Of a stretch of 55,631 nucleotides of DNA, positions 1,818 to 12,731 are shown in pieces. The translations under genes were made by a program, and so were the position numbers. The stretch's first letter is position 1. Every line of letters begins with the position of its first letter. Source of the stretch: Gammaproteobacteria bacterium (lineage in GTDB: Bacteria; Pseudomonadota; Gammaproteobacteria; Ga0077536); contig JAYTTZ010000239.1 of NCBI GenBank assembly GCA_043744805.1, positions 1 to 55,631 of the forward strand. Reading direction: 5' to 3'. Below the pieces are notes generated by a model. The model was not told the DNA's origin and did not search any database. It worked only from the letters and a program-made list of their open reading frames with translations.

Positions 1818-4800
1818 CTACTGCGCCAGCAGGCGATCCAGCCACTGGTTGGAGAGCTTCTCCTGCACCGTGTTCTGGCGCAGGCGCGCACGGAGGTGAT
1901 CGAAGTCCACCAGATCCAGCGGCTGGTCCTGGTTGAAGCAGGAATAGACGAAGCTTTCCTCGCCCGTCCCGGGATCGACGTGGCGGCACAGGCACTGGGC
2001 ACAGACGCCCTTCATCATGCATTGCATCGGTGAGTTGATGGATCCGATGGCCTGGTGCCCGGCCTTGAGGTAAGGCGCAAGGACACCGCTCCGCGCTTTC
2101 TTCACCGCGTTCATCATGCCGTCCGAACCAATCACGATGATTTCGTCCGCCTCCGACAGCGCGATGGTGACTTCGCCCAGCTTGCCAGTGGAGTAGGCCA
2201 CGATGGTGTCAAGGATGTTGCCGACGAAGGTCTTGTCCTGCGGGCGTCCGGGCTTGATGGCCTCTACGCCTTCGCCCGGATCAACTGCCCACACCACCAC
2301 GTCGGCGGCGGCTTCGATGTCGCTCACCTTGAACACGTCCACCGGCCGCTTGTAGCCCGCGAAGTAGACGACGCGGTTGCCGGCGGCACGCAGCGCCTTG
2401 CCGATGGAGAACAGCACGGCGTTGCCGAGCCCGCCGCCGACCATCGCCACCGTGGTGTTCTTCGGGATATGCGTCGGCGCCCCGGTCACGCCCATCACCA
2501 CCAGTTGCTCGCCGGGCTTGAAGTGCATGAGGAGACGCGAGGAGGTCCCCATTTCCAGCGCGATGAGCGAGATGAGTCCTTCGTCCTCGTTGACCCAGGC
2601 GCCGGTCAGGGCGAGGCCTTCGGTGGCGAGCTTGGTGTCACCGATGGTTGCTGCGCGGGATTCGAAGTTCTGCACGCGGTAGAACTGGCCGGGCTCGAAG
2701 CGGCGCGCCGCGAACGGGGCGCGGGCCACCACTTCGACGATGGTCGGGGTGAGGCGATTGACCTCCACCACCCGCGCAACGAGCGCCTCGTCGAGATCGC
2801 CGAAGAAACGCAGCATCCCGGCGTCGCGGGCCGGCTGCTCGGCGGGCGACAGGCGGTCACGCTCTTCCGCGAAGAGGTTCGCGATGTAGGGATAGCCGTC
2901 CTTCGCGCTCGCCATCGCCTTCACCACGTTGCCGGCATACACGGGATGGTTGTCGCCGTAGAAGCTGACGTAACGGCCATTCTTCCGATACGAAGTGAAC
3001 GGTGCCGGTTCCGCGAGCTTCGGACCGCCCTGCCCCGTGCCCGCGCGCAGATCCGGCGCGCTGTGGGTGGCGCCTTCAGGCTCGAAGTGTGAGAAGAACT
3101 TGCCGGTGAGATCGAAGGTGCCCGGGTTCTCCGACTGGTAGATGGTGTTGGGCGACGTGCCTGCAGCCACGAAGAGGCCGCAGAGTTTCACTTCCACCTT
3201 CGACTTGCTGCCGTCGGCCCCGAGCTTCTCGAAAATCACCGCCCGCAGGGCGCCGAACTCGTCCGTCAAGGTTTCCAGCGGGTTCATATTGGGCGCGAGC
3301 TGGATGCCTTCAGTCAGGGCCTCGTTGATTTCTTCGTGGTTCTGGCGATAGGCCGGCGAGTCGGCGATGGTCTTGCGGTAGAACATCGTCACGCCGCCCC
3401 AGCCGTTGACCAGCGGTGCGAAGTCAGGCGCTTCACCGGCCGCAGCGGCACGCGTCCGCTCGGCGCGCACCGCACGACCGTGTGCCAGGAACTCATCGAG
3501 GATGCCGAGTTCCTCCTTGTCGAAGCGGGCACGCACCTTGGCTTCGCCCTGGTCCGTCACCAGGATTTCATAGCGCTTGAGGGTCTTCTCGACCTGGCGC
3601 GGGTAGTAGGCCATCAGTTCCGTGGTGGTATCGATAGCCGTGAGACCGCCACCCACAACGCCGCAGGGCAGGCGCACCTGCAGGTTGGTCATGGAGTCGT
3701 CCTTGGCCGCACCGGTGAGCTGCAGGCCCATCAGGAAGTCGGACGCCTTGCGCACGCCGCGCACGAGGTTGCCCTTGAGGCCGATGATCGAGGGCTTGCC
3801 GGCACCGGTGGCAAGCGCCACATGGTCGAAGCCGAGATCCCAGGCATCTTCCAGGGTCAGCGTGCCGCCAAAGCGCACGCCGCCGAACACGCGGAAGGAC
3901 TGGCGGCGCAACAGGGTGAGGTAGATGACTTTCAGGAAGTTCTTGTCCCAGCGCACCGTGATGCCGTATTCGGCCACGCCGCCAAAGCCGCTGACCACGC
4001 GGCGATCGAGTTCTTCGTAGAGCGTCTTGAACGCGGCCACCGGCGTAGGCGCCGTCGTGGCGGTGCCCGTCAGCGCTTCCGGCAGGGGTTCGAGCTTGAG
4101 TGCATCGATGCCCACCACCGCGAAGCCTTCGTTCAGCAGGTAGTGCGAGAGCGTGTAGCCGGCCGGGCCCATGCCCACCACCAGCACCTTGCGGCCGTTG
4201 AACGGCAGCAGGTACGGACGGCGCACGTTAAGCGGGTTCCAGCGCGTGAGGAAGCCGTAAATCTCGAAACCGTAAGGCAGGTCGAGCACGTCGGTCAGGA
4301 CGTTGGTTTCAATCTGCGGGATGTTGACCGGCTCGGTCTTCTGGTAAATGCAGCCCTTCATGCAGTCGTTGCAGATGCGGTGGCCGGTGCCGGGGCACAT
4401 CGGGTTGTCCACCACCACCAACGCCAGCGCGCCAATGTTGTCGCCCTGCCGCTTCAGCACGTGCATTTCGGAAATCTTTTCGCCCAGCGGGCAGCCGGCG
4501 GCGGTGACCCCCAGTGCATTAACCTTGAAGGAGTTGTCTTTCTTGTTGCGCATGCCCTTGGCGCAGGAGTCGGCGTCGCGGTCGTGGCAATAGATGCAGT
4601 GGTCCACTTCGTACAGCACCGTGCGTTGGCCGAAGCGCGGGTCGGTCAGCTTGAAGCCGTCACGGCGACGGCGGTGATTCTCGGGCCCCATCAGGGTGGT
4701 GAAGCCCTCGCGCTGGTTTTCAATGAAGTGCACGAGGTGCTGCACGTCGGTCTTGGCGGGTTCCTTGAACACCACCCAGTTAGCGGCCGCCGGGTAGCTC

Positions 4801-5435
4801 GCGGCGCCAGTCGACACCAGGAAACTCCATTCGGCGATGGCGAGTTCGCCAGCTGCAACGCGAGTCGCGAGGTCGGCGCCCGTGGGCAGGGCCTCGACGA
4901 ACGCCGGGGCGGCTTCACGCAGGCCGGAGGCCATCAGGCCGGCGCTGGCCAAGGCGTATTCCTTGTCGCCGGCACGGCCGACCGTGCCATCACAGGCCAC
5001 GACCAGCTTACGCACCACCTGCGTGAGTTCGCCGAAGCGGGCGGCGTCCACCGGCGCGCCCTTGAAGCGCTTCGCCAGGGTCGCCACGAATGCGTTACGG
5101 AACTTGAGCACCGTGTCGTCTTCATCGCGGATGGCCGCACGCTGTGCTTCCCACGGTTGTTCGATATTGAACAGTTTCGCCACGAAACGTCCCACGTACG
5201 GCGCGGTGTCGGTCAGCACTTCGGAGAGGGCTTCCGGAGTCATGCCTTCGCCCTGGTTGGCGCAGTAATCGGCATAGCGCGCGCCCAGGGCCGGGTCGCT
5301 GCTGGCAAGACCGGACGTGAACTCAGCGTAAAGCGTGGCGAGGGCGGCGGGATCGTAGAGGTCGGCGTAGGCGTAACCAGCAATACCGAGCGTCAAGGTG
5401 GACGCGGCATTTGAATCGACGTGAATGGCAGTCAT
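1818..5435 (-). CDS. Fused FAD/Fe-S oxidoreductase: GltD/NfnB-like (Fer4_20 + pyridine nucleotide-disulfide) plus C-terminal NfnA/PyrK-like FNR-2Fe2S module
   Basis: CIYCH..C..GCP and HRICNDCMKGC cluster motifs; VVGMGPAG and VVGGGLTAID dinucleotide motifs; PGQF, VGGGLG and SINSPMQCMMKGVCAQC...SC in the C-terminal part. Confidence 0.8.
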   Translation of the reverse strand: MTAIHVDSNAASTLTLGIAGYAYADLYDPAALATLYAEFTSGLASSDPALGARYADYCANQGEGMTPEALSEVLTDTAPYVGRFVAKLFNIEQPWEAQRAAIRDEDDTVLKFRNAFVATLAKRFKGAPVDAARFGELTQVVRKLVVACDGTVGRAGDKEYALASAGLMASGLREAAPAFVEALPTGADLATRVAAGELAIAEWSFLVSTGAASYPAAANWVVFKEPAKTDVQHLVHFIENQREGFTTLMGPENHRRRRDGFKLTDPRFGQRTVLYEVDHCIYCHDRDADSCAKGMRNKKDNSFKVNALGVTAAGCPLGEKISEMHVLKRQGDNIGALALVVVDNPMCPGTGHRICNDCMKGCIYQKTEPVNIPQIETNVLTDVLDLPYGFEIYGFLTRWNPLNVRRPYLLPFNGRKVLVVGMGPAGYTLSHYLLNEGFAVVGIDALKLEPLPEALTGTATTAPTPVAAFKTLYEELDRRVVSGFGGVAEYGITVRWDKNFLKVIYLTLLRRQSFRVFGGVRFGGTLTLEDAWDLGFDHVALATGAGKPSIIGLKGNLVRGVRKASDFLMGLQLTGAAKDDSMTNLQVRLPCGVVGGGLTAIDTTTELMAYYPRQVEKTLKRYEILVTDQGEAKVRARFDKEELGILDEFLAHGRAVRAERTRAAAAGEAPDFAPLVNGWGGVTMFYRKTIADSPAYRQNHEEINEALTEGIQLAPNMNPLETLTDEFGALRAVIFEKLGADGSKSKVEVKLCGLFVAAGTSPNTIYQSENPGTFDLTGKFFSHFEPEGATHSAPDLRAGTGQGGPKLAEPAPFTSYRKNGRYVSFYGDNHPVYAGNVVKAMASAKDGYPYIANLFAEERDRLSPAEQPARDAGMLRFFGDLDEALVARVVEVNRLTPTIVEVVARAPFAARRFEPGQFYRVQNFESRAATIGDTKLATEGLALTGAWVNEDEGLISLIALEMGTSSRLLMHFKPGEQLVVMGVTGAPTHIPKNTTVAMVGGGLGNAVLFSIGKALRAAGNRVVYFAGYKRPVDVFKVSDIEAAADVVVWAVDPGEGVEAIKPGRPQDKTFVGNILDTIVAYSTGKLGEVTIALSEADEIIVIGSDGMMNAVKKARSGVLAPYLKAGHQAIGSINSPMQCMMKGVCAQCLCRHVDPGTGEESFVYSCFNQDQPLDLVDFDHLRARLRQNTVQEKLSNQWLDRLLAQ

Positions 5436-5641: not shown

Positions 5642-6293
5642 AGGGACTTCAGGATCAGCTTTCCCACTGACATCAGCGCCTGGCAGGACGCCAAGATGGC
5701 GGAGGATCATGGGTTCTTCCATCCCTGGTTCTATGACTCGCAGACGTGCTGCAGCGACGTCTATGCCAGCATGGCGCTCGTCGCCCACCACACCCGCAGC
5801 ATCAAGATCGGCACGCGCGTGTCCATCCTTGGCAACCGCATCGCGCCGGTTACCGCGCACTCCATCGCGACCATCAACGAACTGGTGCCTGGGCGCGTAA
5901 TCCTGGGCGTGGGCACCGGTTTTAACGGCCACACCGTGATGGGCATGCCGCCCATCACGCTGAAGACCATGCGCGAGCACATCGAGATTATCCGCGACCG
6001 CCCCGCTGGCAAAGCAGCGGTATCCCGCAAAGGTAGCCGCGAACGGCACGTCTGGGCGACGCTTCCAGGCAATGCAGCTTGCCCACCTGGTGTTCAGGCG
6101 CGAAGGCGCACGCGCCTACCTGCCGCCAGAACTCATCAAGGCCGGCACCCTCGCCGGCTCCGGACCTGAAATCATCGATCGCATCCGCGCACTCGAGGAA
6201 GCCGGCGTGACCAATATCGCGCTCAACGTCTGCGGCACGGATGCCCGCGAGATGATCCGGAAGTTCGGTCGGGAAGTGGTTTCGAAATACTGG
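5642..6293 (+). pseudogene. Degraded LLM-class flavin-dependent oxidoreductase (start lost, internal deletion, frameshift)
   Basis: In-frame upstream (R)DFRISFPTDISAWQDAKMAEDHGF..WFYDSQ..IKIGT..IAPVTAHSIATINELVPGRVILGVGTG is an LLM N-terminus. A different frame from 6072 gives the LLM C-terminus (EIIDRIRALEEAGVTNIAL..FGREVVSKY). The total is far shorter than an intact LLM. Confidence 0.75.
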
Positions 6294-6314
6294 TCGAAGG
6301 ACGGCCGTCCCTCG

Positions 6315-6350
6315 CGCCCCCCCTCGCCGCCAGGCAGCGAGGGGGGGGCG
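6315..6350. terminator. GC-rich stem-loop between convergent genes
   Basis: cgccccccctcgc pairs with gcgaggggggggcg (one bulged G). There is no clear U-tract, so terminator function is uncertain. Confidence 0.35.
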
Positions 6351-6374
6351 TGCCTTGGTCGAGGCGGGAACGCC

Positions 6375-7301
6375 TCAGAAGGCGACGTTGTCCCGGCCCT
6401 TCAATTTCAGCATTTCCCGCGCTTCCGCGGGGGTGGCCACTTCCAGCGACAGCGCTTCGATGACCGTGCGAATCCGCCGGACCTGCGCGGCATTGGTCTC
6501 GGCCAGGTGGCCTGGACCGTCCCACAACGAGTCTTCCAGGCCCACCCGCACCATCCCGCCCATCGCCGCCGACATGGTGGCAACCGGGATCTGGTTGCGA
6601 CCCGCCCCCAGCACCGACCAGAGGTAGTCGTTGCCAAACAGGCGGTCCGCCGTGCGCCGCATGTGGACCACGTCCTCGAAGTGCGCCCCAATAGCGCCGC
6701 GCAGCCCGAAGACTGACTGGATCAGGAGCGGCGGCTTGATGAGCTGCCGATCGAGGAAATGCGCGGCCGTGTACAGGTGCCCGATGTCATAGCACTCCAC
6801 CTCGAAGCGGGTGTTGTTGTCGCTGCACGACTCGAGGATGTGGGCGATGTCGCGGAAGGTGTTCTTGAAGACCCGATCCTCGCTGCCGGCCAGGTAGGGC
6901 CGTTCCCAGTCATGCTTGAATTCCTTGTAGCGCCCCATCATTTCGTAGAGCCCGAAATTCATCGAGCCCATGTTGAGGGAGGCCACTTCGGGCTTCAGCC
7001 TGAGCGCGGGCTGCAGCCGTTCTTCCACCAGCATGGTCGGGGCGCCGCCCGTGGTGAGGTTGATCACCACGTCCGACGCTGCCTTGATCTGCGGGCAGAA
7101 GTCCATGAAGAGCGCCGGATCCTGCGAAGGACTGCCATCCCCTGGCGTGCGGGCGTGGAGGTGCACGATCGCCGCGCCCGCCTCCGCCGCACCCAGTGCC
7201 GCTGCGGTGATTTCCGCTGCCGTGATCGGCAGGTAGGGCGACATCGTCGGGGTGTGGATCGCCCCGGTTACCGCACAGGTGATGATGACTTTCCTCGGCA
7301 T
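6375..7301 (-). CDS. BKACE family (DUF849) 3-keto-5-aminohexanoate cleavage-like protein
   Basis: MPRKVIITCAVTGAIHTPTMSPYLP; GAAIVHLHAR; NLTTGG; PEVASLNMGSMNF; FEVECYD; VRVGLEDS. Confidence 0.9.
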   Translation of the reverse strand: MPRKVIITCAVTGAIHTPTMSPYLPITAAEITAAALGAAEAGAAIVHLHARTPGDGSPSQDPALFMDFCPQIKAASDVVINLTTGGAPTMLVEERLQPALRLKPEVASLNMGSMNFGLYEMMGRYKEFKHDWERPYLAGSEDRVFKNTFRDIAHILESCSDNNTRFEVECYDIGHLYTAAHFLDRQLIKPPLLIQSVFGLRGAIGAHFEDVVHMRRTADRLFGNDYLWSVLGAGRNQIPVATMSAAMGGMVRVGLEDSLWDGPGHLAETNAAQVRRIRTVIEALSLEVATPAEAREMLKLKGRDNVAF

Positions 7302-7305
7302 TGGA

Positions 7306-7953
7306 TCAACCCTTCTGCGCCTGCATCGCCGCCAGCGCGGCACCTTGCGCGGCGTCGACCTGCTGGGCGAATGGACGCGCCTTGATCCGACCCAGGATCT
7401 CTCCCATGCCCGGGACTTCCTGCGTGATGTCCCAGCCGTCGTAGACAGCCTTGAGCGCCATCGTGGCATAGCCCAGCACGTGGTAGGCGTAGATATCCAC
7501 CAGCGAGAATTCCGCACCACCAAACCACTGTCCCTTGCCGGTCAGCTGGGCCAGCGCCTTCAGGCCGTTTTCAACCACCGGACGCACTTCGTCCACCGCG
7601 GCCTGCGACTTCGGCGCGCCGAAGAAGACATGGCCAAAATGGCGGCGCGCCGACAGTTCGATGTAGAGCTCGAAGATGCGCATCAGTTCGCGGGACTTGG
7701 CGCGCGCGAAGGCATCCTTGGGCAGGTGGCCGGGATGGATTTCCTCGAGGTAGTCGAGGATGGCGCTGGTTTCCGACAGGAAACCTTCCTGCACTTCGAT
7801 GCAAGGCACCTTGCCCATCGGGCTCCTGGCCTTGTACTCGCCTTCCTGGCTCGGTGTCGCGGCGGCTTCCTCGAAGGCAATGCCCTTTTCGAGCATCGCC
7901 AGCTTGACCATGTTGTAGTAGTTGCTGACCGGGATACCGTAAAGCTTGACCAT
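7306..7953 (-). CDS. Glutathione S-transferase
   Basis: MVKLYGIPVSNYYNMVKLAMLEKG; SPMGKVPC; LSETSAILDYLEE; aggag RBS upstream of the 7953 start. Confidence 0.9.
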   Translation of the reverse strand: MVKLYGIPVSNYYNMVKLAMLEKGIAFEEAAATPSQEGEYKARSPMGKVPCIEVQEGFLSETSAILDYLEEIHPGHLPKDAFARAKSRELMRIFELYIELSARRHFGHVFFGAPKSQAAVDEVRPVVENGLKALAQLTGKGQWFGGAEFSLVDIYAYHVLGYATMALKAVYDGWDITQEVPGMGEILGRIKARPFAQQVDAAQGAALAAMQAQKG

Positions 7954-8022
7954 CTGGAACTCTCCTCTGGGGAAACGCCGTTGTTGGGCACTCGCCGGCC
8001 TGCAGCTTGCCGGCATCAAACG

Positions 8023-10644
8023 TCAGGAATTCGCGCGCCTTGATTGCCAGCGCTCCACTGCGGACATGAGCGCGGGCAGGACGATGAGCGCGCTCGCCAG
8101 GGCATAGGCGAGCGACAGGGAAATCAGCACGCCCATGCCGGCCATGCCGGGATGCCTGGACACCGCCAGCGTGCCGAAGGACGCCACCGCCGTCATGCCA
8201 CTGAACAACACCGCGCGCGGGGTGCTGCTTTCCAGCAGCTTTACCACCCCGTCGCTGTGCTTGCGGCGAACCACGAGGTAGGCACCATAAGCGTTATTGA
8301 GGCCTATCAACAACGGCAGCGCGATGATGTTGGCGAAGTTGAGCGGGAAGTGGCTGAGCACGGAAGTTGCCACGGTAAGCAGCATGGCAAGCACCAGCGG
8401 CGCAGCCACCAACAGGGCGTCGATCCAGCCATGGAGCACCAGCGCGTGCATCACGATCGTCATCAGCAGCGCGCCCACCGAGGCCTTGAAGCAGGCATCG
8501 ATGACCACGTCACTGCCAATCACGAGTTCCACCGGCGCGCCGGTGGCCCCTTTGTCGGCACCCTGCACTTCCTTGACGAAGCGTCGCATGGCCGCGTTGT
8601 CGTTCAGGTTCTCCCGTGGGTACACCTCGATGCGCGCCCGCCCGTCCGGCGCGAGGTAACGCGCCTGCAGAATTGCCGGCAGGTCCTTGAGTTCAACCGG
8701 CGCGGCTTCCATCAAACTACTGAGGCGCTTCAGGGTCTGCGGCAGATCACCCAGCAACTGGGCGCGCAGCGCCGAGATGCGCACTGACGCCGCTTCTGGC
8801 TGCGCATCCAGCACCTTCAGTGCGGCGGCAAGACGCTTGGCGGCCGCCACCGCCCCGGCTTCGGTGAACTCGCCCAGGCGTCTGTCCAGCCGTCCGGCAA
8901 ACGCCTTGATGGCGGCAAGCTCGGTCGCGGCGGCGGGCGCCGGCTGTGGCGGCACGTCGATGACGCCGGTGAGCGAGGTGCGCATGCCATCGATGATGTC
9001 GAGTTTCTCCTGCTGGTCTGCCGGCACCAGGCTGTGCAGGGTGACCACCTTGTCCACGCTCGGCAGCTTGCCAAGCTGCGCCGCACTCGCCTCCGCCGCT
9101 TCCAGCGAGGGACTCAGGATCTGGATGGTGTAGGGCGTGGAGATGGGGTCGTTGGCCAGCGCGAGGTAAGCCTGCACGGAAGGACTGCTGCGGTCCTTGA
9201 GGTTGGCGGGATTGGGGTCGAACTCGGCGCGCGGCAGCAGCAGTGCGCTGCCCACCGCCAGCGCCCCTGCCCCGAGGAGGATGCTGCGTTCGTGGCGTCC
9301 GAGCACCCGCGCCAGCGCACCCGAACCCGGGGACTTCCGCAAGCGCACCCGCGGTGGGCGAAGCAGGGACAGCACGGCGGGCAGCAAGGTGATGTTCGCC
9401 ACCAGCGCCACGGCCATGCTGAAACTGGCAATGACACCCAGTTGCGCCAGCCCGCGATAGGCCGTCGGCACGAACGCGGAGAAGCAGAGGGCAGCGCCGA
9501 CTGCTGCCAGCAGCAACGCGCCACCCGCACCGTCGGCGGTGCGGCGGATCGCCGCTGCGCCCTGGCTGCCACCGTCGCATTCCTCCAGGTAGCGCATGGC
9601 GAACTGGATGCCGAAGTCCACGCCCATGCCGATGAACAGCACCGCGAAGCAAACCGAAATGATGTTCAGGCTGCCCACCAGGAGAGTGGCCAGCGCAGCA
9701 GTCCACACCAGCCCGGCGGCAAGCGTCACCAGCACGGCCAGCACCACGCCAGGCGAGCGCAGCCCCCAGATGAGCACCAGCGCCACCGCACCGAAGGACA
9801 GCAGCGTGGTGCTCCCTGCTTCGTCCGTCACGGTCACCAGTTCTTCGCTGTCCATGGGTGCGGGTCCGGTCACGCGGAAGCTGACGTCCGGCCAGTCTTG
9901 GTGCATACCGGCCAGCAGCGCGTGCAGCGCGTCGATGGCCGCCTGTTCCGGCTGGAAGGAGGTCGTCTCGCGCGCCGGGTTGATCAGCACGAAGGACCGT
10001 TGCGGTCCCTTGGTGCCGGGGAAGAGTTCATCTCGCCAATGGATCGCGGCGCCGCCAGGCTGCTCCAGCGCCTCGGCGATGCGCTCGAACATGCGGGTGA
10101 GCAACTGTTGCTGGCCTGCGTCGAGCGGTTGGTCCAGCGCGCGGGCCAGGGTGTCGAAGAGCCCGCGCAGGCTGGGATCGTGGGTCAGCGTGCCCAGCAA
10201 CGGCGCGGCGGCAGCAATGCGCTCGTCCACCGTCCAGAGTTCGTCGGTGGACAGGTAAAGCAGACCATTCCTGGCAAAGAACTCGCCGCCGCCCGGCTGC
10301 GACCAGGCGCTGGCGACGTCGGGATGCTCGCCAAGCCTTGCCACCAGGGCGTCGGCGGCTTCTTCCGCGAGGCCCGCATGCGCGGCTTCCGCGTAGACCA
10401 CCACGTCGCCGGGCAGGTGCGGGAAAGCAGCAGCGAGCGCAAGGTTTGCCTGCCGATGCGGCAGGCGAACGTCAATCATGTTCGTGGTGTCGGTGTCGAT
10501 GCTGATGTGGGTCGCGGTGTACCGGGCCGCGATTCCGGTCACGACGACGCCAAGCAGGAGCACGATCCACGCATGCGCGACGGACCACGCCGCGATGGCG
10601 TGGACGAAGCGTCGCGGCAGGATTTTGAGCGATTCCGGCATCAT
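8023..10644 (-). CDS. hpnN: MMPL/RND transporter, HpnN-type (hopanoid-associated family)
   Basis: ISIDTDTTNMI; FFARNGLLYLS; LFIGMGVDFGIQF; NFANIIALPLLIGL; two TM bundles with periplasmic loops. Confidence 0.75.
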   Translation of the reverse strand: MMPESLKILPRRFVHAIAAWSVAHAWIVLLLGVVVTGIAARYTATHISIDTDTTNMIDVRLPHRQANLALAAAFPHLPGDVVVYAEAAHAGLAEEAADALVARLGEHPDVASAWSQPGGGEFFARNGLLYLSTDELWTVDERIAAAAPLLGTLTHDPSLRGLFDTLARALDQPLDAGQQQLLTRMFERIAEALEQPGGAAIHWRDELFPGTKGPQRSFVLINPARETTSFQPEQAAIDALHALLAGMHQDWPDVSFRVTGPAPMDSEELVTVTDEAGSTTLLSFGAVALVLIWGLRSPGVVLAVLVTLAAGLVWTAALATLLVGSLNIISVCFAVLFIGMGVDFGIQFAMRYLEECDGGSQGAAAIRRTADGAGGALLLAAVGAALCFSAFVPTAYRGLAQLGVIASFSMAVALVANITLLPAVLSLLRPPRVRLRKSPGSGALARVLGRHERSILLGAGALAVGSALLLPRAEFDPNPANLKDRSSPSVQAYLALANDPISTPYTIQILSPSLEAAEASAAQLGKLPSVDKVVTLHSLVPADQQEKLDIIDGMRTSLTGVIDVPPQPAPAAATELAAIKAFAGRLDRRLGEFTEAGAVAAAKRLAAALKVLDAQPEAASVRISALRAQLLGDLPQTLKRLSSLMEAAPVELKDLPAILQARYLAPDGRARIEVYPRENLNDNAAMRRFVKEVQGADKGATGAPVELVIGSDVVIDACFKASVGALLMTIVMHALVLHGWIDALLVAAPLVLAMLLTVATSVLSHFPLNFANIIALPLLIGLNNAYGAYLVVRRKHSDGVVKLLESSTPRAVLFSGMTAVASFGTLAVSRHPGMAGMGVLISLSLAYALASALIVLPALMSAVERWQSRRANS

Positions 10645-11837
10645 GTGGCGCTCCTCCCCGCGTCGCCGGCAAGCCGGGGGCGGATGACGCCCTCGGCCAG
10701 CAGGGGGGCGATGACCGCCTCGTCATAACCAAGTTCGCGCGCGACCTCGGCGCCATGTTCGCTGCGCCCGGGCACGTGCCCACCGGCCTGACCCGGTTCG
10801 TTGCGGTACAGGATGGGCACGCCGAGCATCGGCATGCCGGCCTCGTCGACCACCCGCATGCCGCGTTCCACCGTTGCCGGATCGTTGAGCGCATCGTTCA
10901 GGGTGCGGAGCGGCGCGTAGCAGACGTCGATGTCGGCCAGCCAGTCCAGCCAGTGTTCGAGCGTTTCCTGCGCGAAGAAGCCATCGAGGAAGTGCCGCAG
11001 CGGCTGTTGGGCCGGGCCCGGCACTTCGCGGGTCAGCGGCAGCAGGTCGCGGCGCCCCGCCTTGTCCAGGAGATTGGCGCAGAAATGCGGTTCCATGCCG
11101 CCCAGCACCAGCGTCTTGCCGTCGCGGGTTTGATAGAGGTTGTAGAACGCCGCACCGCCCCAGTTGCGCTCCATGGGCACGTCGTGGGCGCGGTTTTCGA
11201 CGAAAGCAGGCCCTGCGTAGTTGGCGGTCCACGCCAGCAGGCAATCATGCAACGCGATGTCGAGGTAATCCCCCTGCCCTGTCTCGCGCTGGCGCAGCAG
11301 CGCCATCAGCACGCCGGAGAACGCCATCATCGAGCCCGCCATGTCGGCCGCCGGCATCCCCGGGTGGGTGGGACCGCCATCGCGGCCGCGATGGAAATCC
11401 AGCGTGCCGGCCATCGCTTCGATGGCGATATCGTGCGCGGGCTTGTCGCGATACGGACCGCTCTGGCCGAAGGCGGAGATCGAGCAGTAGACGATCTGCG
11501 GCGCGCGGGCGCGCACCGTGTCGTAATCAAGGCCGAGGCGCTGCATCACGCCGGGGCGGAATCCTTCGACCATCACGTCGGCGGTTTCCAGCAGCTTGAG
11601 CAGGAACTCCACCGCACGCGCGTCCTTGAGGTTGAGTTCGATGCTCCGCTTGCCGCGATGCGTGTTGCGGAACCACACCGTGTGCCCGCCTTGCGACAGG
11701 CCCAGTTCACGCGCCGGCTCACCGCCGGGTGGCTCGATGCGAATGACGTCCGCGCCGTGGTCGGCCATCATCATCGTGAAATGCGGACCGGGCAAAAACA
11801 TGGATAGGTCCACGACCTTGACGCCCGCAAGCTTCAT
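10641..11837 (-). CDS. CaiB/BaiF family III CoA-transferase
   Basis: KVVDLSMFLPGP; GADVIRIEPPGG; RGKRSIELNLK; ADVMVEGFRPG; HDI; ADMAGS. Stop overlaps the MMPL start (ATGA). Confidence 0.92.
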   Translation of the reverse strand: MKLAGVKVVDLSMFLPGPHFTMMMADHGADVIRIEPPGGEPARELGLSQGGHTVWFRNTHRGKRSIELNLKDARAVEFLLKLLETADVMVEGFRPGVMQRLGLDYDTVRARAPQIVYCSISAFGQSGPYRDKPAHDIAIEAMAGTLDFHRGRDGGPTHPGMPAADMAGSMMAFSGVLMALLRQRETGQGDYLDIALHDCLLAWTANYAGPAFVENRAHDVPMERNWGGAAFYNLYQTRDGKTLVLGGMEPHFCANLLDKAGRRDLLPLTREVPGPAQQPLRHFLDGFFAQETLEHWLDWLADIDVCYAPLRTLNDALNDPATVERGMRVVDEAGMPMLGVPILYRNEPGQAGGHVPGRSEHGAEVARELGYDEAVIAPLLAEGVIRPRLAGDAGRSAT

Positions 11838-11897
11838 GCGGCTGTCCTCCTGGAAAGCGAAATCAGGTCAATACCGGGGCACGGCGGCGGCGCGCCT

Positions 11898-12731
11898 TCA
11901 GGCGAGGGACCAGTCCACCCAGACCGGCGTGAGGTCCGCAGGCAGCGGCCCAGGTTGCCCGAGGCGCGCGTGATCGTTGTCGCCGCCGTGGAAATCACTG
12001 CCTGCCGAGGCGGCCAGCGCGTAGCGCCGGCAAAGGGCGGCAAGGTCGCGGGTGGTATTGGCAGATTGCCCGCCGCAGGCGACTTCAAGTGCCGTCCCAC
12101 CGGCCGCCTTGAAGTCTTCCACCAGTTCGCGGAGCCGCGAATGCGTGAAGCCGTACTTGGCCGGATGTGCGAGCACTGCAGTGCCGCCATCCGCCGTAAT
12201 CCAGTGTACGGCGTCGGCGAGTCCAGCCCAGGTCGGGTTGCCGCCGCCCGTCGCGTGATCGCCCAACCAGCGGTGGAAGGCATCGTCGATGCTGCGTGCC
12301 TTGCCTTCCGCCACGAGGTAGCGCGCGAAATGGGGTCGTCCCAGCACACCGTCCCCTGCAATGCGCCGGGCACCTTCATACGCGCCTTCGATGCCGCGCT
12401 TGTGGAGGCGCTCGCCGATAGCCTGGCCGCGTTCGTCGCGCAGCCGGCGCTGCCCGAGCACGCCATGCGCAAGCGGGCTGTCGGGCTGGTTGCGCAGGTT
12501 GAGGCCCAGCACATGCACCACCCGTCCGCGCCACTGCGCGGAGAGTTCGATGCCGATGAGGACTTCCATGTTGCTGTCGCGCACGACAGGACGCGCGGTC
12601 GGCAGGGTGTCGTGGTCGGTCACGCAGAAAAGGTCTACTCCGCACCGCGCGGCGCGGGCGCAGAGTTCATCCACCGGCAGCCAGCCATCGGAGGACGTGC
12701 TGTGGGCGTGGAGGTCGACCTTCAGCGCCAT
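11898..12731 (-). CDS. yciV: PHP domain phosphoesterase (YciV/TrpH, RNase AM-like)
   Basis: DLHAHSTSSDG; TDHDT; GIELS; GRPHFAR; LAHP; GSDFHG. Confidence 0.85.
   Translation of the reverse strand: MALKVDLHAHSTSSDGWLPVDELCARAARCGVDLFCVTDHDTLPTARPVVRDSNMEVLIGIELSAQWRGRVVHVLGLNLRNQPDSPLAHGVLGQRRLRDERGQAIGERLHKRGIEGAYEGARRIAGDGVLGRPHFARYLVAEGKARSIDDAFHRWLGDHATGGGNPTWAGLADAVHWITADGGTAVLAHPAKYGFTHSRLRELVEDFKAAGGTALEVACGGQSANTTRDLAALCRRYALAASAGSDFHGGDNDHARLGQPGPLPADLTPVWVDWSLA

Follow-up and report, generated by a model that had tools for sequence, protein, structure and literature searches.

The 55,631-nucleotide stretch of DNA analysed here (the window) is contig JAYTTZ010000239.1 of a gammaproteobacterial metagenome-assembled genome (MAG; GCA_043744805.1), which comprises 3.66 Mb in 325 contigs and is 92.5% complete. 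At positions 1818-5435 on the minus strand, the ORF list (ORF, open reading frame) and its translation give one intact, ATG-started frame of 1205 codons. Its product, the Nfn-like iron-sulfur (Fe-S) flavoprotein P0001 (1205 residues plus stop), is the subject of this study. The frame has more than 8000 word-sharing homologues and is supported by full-length, collinear relatives that are 60-86% identical to it; an exact-sequence look-up returned no record. Numerous spurious overlapping ORFs are present because the G+C content of the region is 62-68%. A first-pass annotation had described P0001 as a stand-alone fusion of NfnB-like and NfnA-like modules, and the motifs it named were all found in the translation where it had placed them. 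Residue numbers below are those of P0001, and all features of the gene lie on the minus strand. Conservation was judged in family alignments of 56 and 70 sequences, which reach down to ~32% identity.

The NfnB/GltD-like module (residues 256-880) begins with a helical domain for two [4Fe-4S] clusters (residues 256-400, positions 4236-4670), assigned by a weak Pfam Fer4_20 match and by invariant ligand candidates. The putative motif of the first cluster is C280-x2-C283-x7-C291, completed by C315-P316. That of the second is C355-x2-C358-x3-C362-x13-E376, in which E376 is the Glu of IPQIET. The eight putative Cys and Glu ligands are invariant in both alignments, likewise H284 and D289; C347 is not conserved. 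In profile alignments E376 matches the Glu of the '...LER' motif in P. furiosus NfnI-L and Xfn. Its invariance and its alignment are both in line with the proposal that the IPQIET Glu is a candidate cluster ligand. The rest of the module consists of the FAD and NADPH Rossmann domains (residues 401-880, positions 2796-4235), which were identified by Pfam Pyr_redox_2 and by profile and Foldseek matches. The FAD motif GMGPAG is found at residues 421-426 and GFGGV at 483-487. The NADPH motif GGGLTAID is at residues 595-602, followed by Y686-R687-K688 and by G827-D828. All of these motifs are invariant or nearly so across the family alignment. The NADPH domain also contains a family-specific hairpin of two long helices (~65 residues, ~610-675, positions 3411-3608), which separates the GGG motif from the YRK strand. 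This insert was delineated by DSSP on the full-length model and is skipped by the Nfn profile alignments.

The NfnA/NfnS-like FAD/NAD module (residues 881-1205, positions 1821-2795) was assigned by profile matches to PDB structures and by Foldseek template-modelling (TM) scores on the target of 0.88 and 0.84. Its FNR-type motifs are EGLALTGA (residues 939-946), MGVTG (981-985) and an intact NAD motif, GGGLGNA (1000-1006). The module ends in an all-Cys [2Fe-2S] motif, C1139-x5-C1145-x2-C1148-x17-C1166 (positions 1938-2021), assigned from its position and the conservation of its ligands. The four Cys are invariant in the 56-70 aligned sequences and are visible in ~115 of 150 family representatives; the extra Cys of 'CLC' is not conserved and most members have 'CLQ'. 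The all-Cys motif reported in the first-pass annotation (QCMMKGVCAQC...SC) is real, with the form Cx5Cx2Cx17C, and it takes the place of the Asp(Cys)3 ligation of Nfn. The invariance of all twelve putative Fe-S ligands is far beyond chance. The [2Fe-2S] cluster of Nfn has an exceptionally high potential (+80 mV), which has been linked to its Asp ligand (PMC6405883). Since Cys replaces Asp in P0001, a lower potential than that of Nfn would be expected for its Cys4 cluster.

The NAD motif varies within the family. GGG[LV]G[NT]A is present in 32 of the 56 sampled sequences, including P0001, and is degenerate in 23 (for example, IIGDESS); one more reads GEGAGNA. The Fe-S ligands and the NADPH site are kept in all 56 sequences, the NAD-degenerate ones included. 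It follows that NAD(H) coupling cannot be the core function shared by the family; it may nevertheless be active in the branch to which P0001 belongs. The NAD-degenerate branches may represent a functionally distinct subfamily. These branches, which make up ~40% of the sample (for example, L013:8512-9471), mostly carry the 'QCMLKGVCAQCLQWQ' variant of the [2Fe-2S] motif.

An AlphaFold2 model of nearly the full-length protein, calculated on the 70-sequence alignment and beginning at residue 7, is compact and very confident, with a mean predicted local distance difference test score (pLDDT) of 94.7 and a predicted TM score (pTM) of 0.94. In Foldseek searches its best matches were the Xfn large subunit (5vj7_A; E 2.5e-21, TM score on target 0.82), the NfnI large subunit (5jfc_L; 3e-21, 0.83), the NfnI small subunit (5jca_S; 1.4e-19, 0.88), T. 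maritima NfnB (4ylf_B; 1.4e-18, 0.78) and T. maritima NfnA (4ylf_A; 1.0e-15, 0.84). Dihydropyrimidine dehydrogenase (DPD) ranked next after these Nfn and Xfn subunits. Placement among the Nfn, GltD, Xfn and PyrK groups was judged by the relative E-values of profile searches against the PDB. The NfnB-like half matches NfnI-L, Xfn and T. maritima NfnB at 1e-24 to 1e-29 and B. subtilis GltD at 1.5e-12; the NfnA-like half matches NfnI-S at 2.4e-18, T. maritima NfnA at 1.6e-16 and PyrK at 1.4e-6. Both halves are best matched by Nfn or Xfn in fold as well as in sequence and are nearer to the Nfn subunits than to GltD, DPD or PyrK. 'NfnB plus NfnA on one chain' is therefore a fair description of the protein, and the earlier proposal of a single-chain flavoprotein in this order holds.

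The first-pass annotation had left out the N-terminal ~255 residues. They form an all-helical domain, Pfam PF27156 RP005_N (residues 1-255, positions 4671-5435), and the precomputed match to PF27156.1 is present in P0001 and in every close homologue. Modelled alone with AlphaFold2, the domain has ~11 helices and a pLDDT of 91.8. In an alignment of 47 sequences its invariant positions are nearly all hydrophobic, and no Cys or His is conserved. A fold search gave nothing at E≤0.001 with Foldseek, and the best VIA-align hit had a Z-score of 6.4 over 65 residues. The hits to pieces of sigma-factor region 4 (60 residues, three helices; Z 5-6.4) were rejected as chance since such Z-scores are below the stated noise level for helical models.

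Comparison with databases and literature shows that the fusion is not unusual. P0001 belongs to an already known fused family of the RP005/PRK06567 type, which is named in both Pfam and NCBIfam, and it matches the family profile with 1584.7 bits over positions 4-1154. When 1.84 billion representatives were searched exhaustively at E≤1e-30, the family proved to have at least 1021 clusters (50% identity), mostly of 1000-1250 residues. The family spans at least six phyla and is found mostly in aerobic bacteria. Named carriers include Methylococcales, Sorangium, Myxococcus, Corallococcus and Labilithrix, and carrier MAGs come also from Acidobacteriota, Planctomycetota, Gemmatimonadota, Nitrospirota and Binatia. 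A 'GltD-UbiB chimera' has been described in nearly all Rickettsiales and was thought to be sparse elsewhere (PMC3641634), and Nfn homologues fused in the B-to-A order have been described previously (PMC6405883; PMC3641634). Short matches that might indicate a split, two-gene form were only fragments of the same family at contig ends. P0001 is thus an ordinary member of a known and very large family, and the locus contributes little more than a further example.

The gene is a stand-alone unit, as had been proposed. After spurious antisense ORFs inside the gene had been removed, the ORFs within 6 kb of 84 loci from at least six phyla were clustered; no neighbour family occurred in more than eight loci, and those that recurred were lineage-restricted. 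In one relative (L015, 86% identity) the local gene order is shared, with a CoA-transferase III, an MMPL transporter, a GST, a BKACE protein and a divergent luciferase-like monooxygenase, and distant members have unrelated surroundings (MutS-like/HAGH, GatCAB/LemA and NUDIX/FtsJ). Neither gltB nor pyrD is adjacent to the gene in the window or in the loci of relatives, in agreement with the earlier reading of the window.

The distribution of the family was compared with those of Fpr, the plain ferredoxin-NADP reductase, and of the transhydrogenase subunit PntB, with thresholds of E≤1e-100 for the family profile, E≤1e-25 for Fpr (NF008178) and E≤1e-40 for PntB (PF02233). The Pseudomonadota sample of 401 genomes contains 38 carriers of the family and 189 genomes with Fpr. 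Fpr was found in a single carrier (G012), the only genome of the 401 with both proteins, and in 188 of the 363 non-carriers. Counted by genus, it occurs in 2 of the 21 carrier genera (g96 in G012 and g94 in G294) and in 123 of the 191 others. Contrasts are also seen within two taxonomic families, f40 and f41, in which G028 and G294, respectively, possess Fpr but not the gene. The heavily sampled family f41, with genomes of ~1.2-3 Mb, has Fpr in 1 genome and an RP005-type protein in 22 and mostly has neither. It is uninformative for this comparison because its members almost always lack Fpr, carriers or not; its NADPH:ferredoxin reductase, if any, would have to be of a third kind. When f41 is left out, Fpr is present in 1 of 16 carriers (11 families) and in about two-thirds of the non-carriers, the latter relying on an approximate hand count of f41. 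PntB is not excluded by the family and occurs at the same rate in carriers (34 of 38) and non-carriers (320 of 363). Outside Pseudomonadota, 17 of 181 Myxococcota carry the gene, 18 have Fpr, none has both and 146 have neither. Sorangium, a Pyrinomonadaceae MAG and a Planctomycetota MAG carry the gene and lack Fpr. The statement that a genome almost never has both proteins holds, and it is strong within Pseudomonadota.

The host genome fits this pattern. No Fpr was detected in the MAG by NF008178 at E≤1e-25, and its sole PF00175 proteins are a BenC-like reductase, PaaE and CysJ. Two genes for adrenodoxin-type [2Fe-2S] ferredoxin-like proteins and one for a short flavodoxin provide candidate acceptors. 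One haem-copper oxidase subunit I is encoded, in line with the earlier impression that the organism is aerobic, and PntB is encoded as well. A canonical GltD is present on another contig (C173; 711 bits). The MAG also contains a second GltD/NfnB-like protein of 608 residues (G000:C113, L099:1023-2849, minus strand). It is of the PRK12771 type, at 390.6 bits against a cut-off of 516, has weak C-terminal matches to 4Fe-4S dicluster domains (NuoI/RnfB-like), and its gene is preceded by an unassigned 317-residue ORF.

Combining these data, we propose that P0001 is a self-contained NADPH:ferredoxin or NADPH:flavodoxin oxidoreductase on the Nfn plan that fills the role of Fpr, a reading to which we give about an even chance of being right. 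It would be a soluble, stand-alone iron-sulfur flavoprotein in which a helical domain precedes what are in effect NfnB and NfnA on a single chain. As in NfnAB and NfnI, NADPH would reduce the FAD of the NfnB-like module, and electrons would exit through the two [4Fe-4S] clusters, one of them Glu-ligated, and reduce a low-potential acceptor outside the protein, for example ferredoxin or flavodoxin. The all-Cys [2Fe-2S] cluster would serve another branch, which leads to the second FAD with its NAD(H) site. We infer the cofactor content, electron path, partner and direction from these relatives. GltD-type proteins that work alone as ferredoxin-NADP reductases are known (PMC9365771). The first-pass annotation had offered a transhydrogenase or a ferredoxin:NADP reductase. 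The latter is favoured because carriers lack Fpr; the former is not, because PntB co-occurs with the family and ~40% of the sampled branches have lost the NAD motif.

Several observations weigh against the proposed reductase. The exclusion of Fpr is correlative and was seen in genomes that are related to one another. Both proteins are missing from many genomes, most of f41 and the large majority of the Myxococcota among them, so that a strict 'either/or' does not hold, and the zero overlap in Myxococcota is not significant alone because just ~1.7 genomes with both would be expected. The counts take in one unpublished genome (G383, an Fpr-positive non-carrier), without which nothing material changes. 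The role of the N-terminal domain is unexplained by this reading; the domain could dock a partner enzyme. Finally, the searched literature contains annotations and comparative remarks and no biochemical characterisation of any family member.

The Nfn-like architecture also raises the question of electron bifurcation, which could take two forms. P0001 may be a true bifurcating Nfn whose main job is transhydrogenation. It would then link the pools of NADH, NADPH and ferredoxin, which is the task of NfnAB in anaerobes. Both modules, intact NADPH and NAD motifs and a putative Glu-ligated cluster are present, and the nearest solved structures are NfnI, Xfn and T. maritima NfnAB. Carriers of the family are, however, mostly aerobes and have PntB as often as non-carriers do, the host included; the Asp held responsible for the high-potential [2Fe-2S] cluster is replaced by Cys in a loop with an extra residue (PMC6405883); and the NAD motif is degenerate in 23 of the 56 sampled branches, which have all kept their Fe-S ligands. 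We therefore regard this role as quite improbable. In the other form, the single-chain enzyme would run the Nfn reaction in reverse in obligate aerobes: electrons from NADPH would pass to a low-potential ferredoxin with NAD+ as co-acceptor, making Fpr dispensable. The ferredoxin reduction would be driven by the ratios found in aerobic cells, high for NADPH/NADP+ and low for NADH/NAD+. Flavin-based bifurcation would here have the housekeeping function of reducing ferredoxin, and the [2Fe-2S] cluster with its four Cys and the N-terminal domain would have adapted it to an oxic cytoplasm. The intact NAD site of P0001 permits bifurcation toward ferredoxin, whereas a family-wide need for it is made less likely by the Cys4 cluster and by the branches without the NAD motif. 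We consider this second form unlikely.

P0001 might instead be the electron-input component of a catalytic enzyme encoded elsewhere, like GltD for GltB or the N-terminal half of DPD for its pyrimidine site, with the N-terminal domain as the docking site. The conserved hydrophobic core of that domain, which has no cofactor ligands and no known fold, is consistent with such a role, GltD-like modules commonly serve partner enzymes, and the many genomes that lack both Fpr and the family show that replacement of Fpr is not the whole story. On the other hand, the 84 loci revealed no conserved neighbour, the full-length model is closed as well as compact, and this arrangement does not predict the exclusion of Fpr. 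A dedicated partner enzyme is thus a doubtful explanation. The automatic names imply yet other roles, in glutamate, ubiquinone or pyrimidine metabolism, as a glutamate synthase small subunit joined to a '2-polyprenylphenol hydroxylase' or PyrK. Besides the database names themselves, they have in their favour weak NCBIfam matches to the GltD, gltA and PyrK models, all far below the cut-offs (TIGR01317, 35 bits against 447.7; TIGR01318, 18 against 483; PyrK models, 19-36 against 219-314). Against these roles, the family is retained in reduced genomes of the Rickettsiales type, and a lack of GOGAT has been stated for Ehrlichia (PMC4251998; PMC3641634). In view of the sub-cut-off scores, the separate canonical GltD on C173 and the lack of adjacent gltB or pyrD here and in relatives, the GltD/PyrK annotation of P0001 was rejected, and we consider these roles extremely improbable.

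If the proposed NADPH:ferredoxin/flavodoxin oxidoreductase activity is correct, it would fill a gap in the metabolic reconstruction of Methylococcales and of many Myxococcota and Acidobacteriota that have no Fpr, and also of nearly all Rickettsiales (PMC3641634). This gap affects Fe-S assembly, the activation of radical-SAM enzymes and further steps that depend on ferredoxin or flavodoxin. Should bifurcation prove to be the mechanism, flavin-based electron bifurcation would be extended from anaerobes into strict aerobes, and the family would offer a single-polypeptide model for studying it.

In the vicinity of the gene, the region at positions 6375-12514 on the minus strand encodes the CoA-transferase III (10641-11837), the MMPL transporter (8023-10644) and the probable GST and BKACE proteins in synteny with L015. 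The divergent luciferase-like monooxygenase gene (5645-6290, plus strand; ORFs 5696-6169 and 6072-6716) appears to be disrupted. The intact 357-residue monooxygenase of L015 aligns in two pieces (residues 2-137 and 280-357), which fall in different frames of the window; ~142 codons are missing between them, and the second frame continues to 6716. The disruption is either a pseudogene or an error in the MAG assembly.

Compared with known systems, P0001 resembles NfnAB and NfnI in having two putative [4Fe-4S] sites, one with a Glu ligand, together with FAD and NADPH motifs in the part equivalent to the large subunit, and FAD and NAD motifs and a [2Fe-2S] site in the part equivalent to the small subunit. 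It differs from NfnAB in being a single chain in the B-to-A order, neither two subunits nor the clostridial A-to-B fusion, and in carrying the 255-residue N-terminal domain and the ~65-residue helical insert; the sequence identity is only ~20-26%. The Nfn signatures are ERxPxT, DGTGMCGxCRx10CV, RCx2Cx4Cx3CPV and GRVCPQExQCx3Cx13Gx2ER (PMC6405883). In place of the Asp(Cys)3 motif DGTGMCGxC, the [2Fe-2S] site of P0001 has four Cys with Cx5C spacing and a loop one residue longer. Its first [4Fe-4S] motif is Cx2Cx7Cx23CP, with a 23-residue insert before CP, rather than Cx2Cx4Cx3CP, and the second is Cx2Cx3C, three residues shorter than the Cx5Cx3C of Nfn. The flavin strand reads E-G-L-A-L-T and keeps the Glu and Thr of ERxPxT but not the Arg and Pro. 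In addition, the family of P0001 is found mainly in aerobes. The 9N5U lead yielded only an unrelated NfnABC (Bfu-type) enzyme.

Among fused proteins, the Rickettsial type, NF005128 (PRK06567), has the same domain order including RP005_N and is the best NCBIfam match of P0001. The score of 597.6 bits is below the equivalog cut-off of 1072, which places P0001 in the wider family and not in the Rickettsial equivalog. The Rickettsial type has ~1031 residues, whereas P0001 belongs to a longer (~1200 residues) gammaproteobacterial branch; a 1032-residue frame from a 1.1-Mb sampled genome matches the family profile at positions 10-977 only. The 'pattern C' fused Nfn proteins of Actinobacteria and Proteobacteria (PRK12779; PMC6405883) share the single chain with NfnB first and NfnA last. 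However, they have ~944 residues and no RP005_N, and P0001 scores 105.2 bits on NF009415 against a cut-off of 1519. Fpr (NF008178), whose job we propose for P0001, is not a member of the family; it is a plain FNR of 250 residues with one FAD and no Fe-S cluster.

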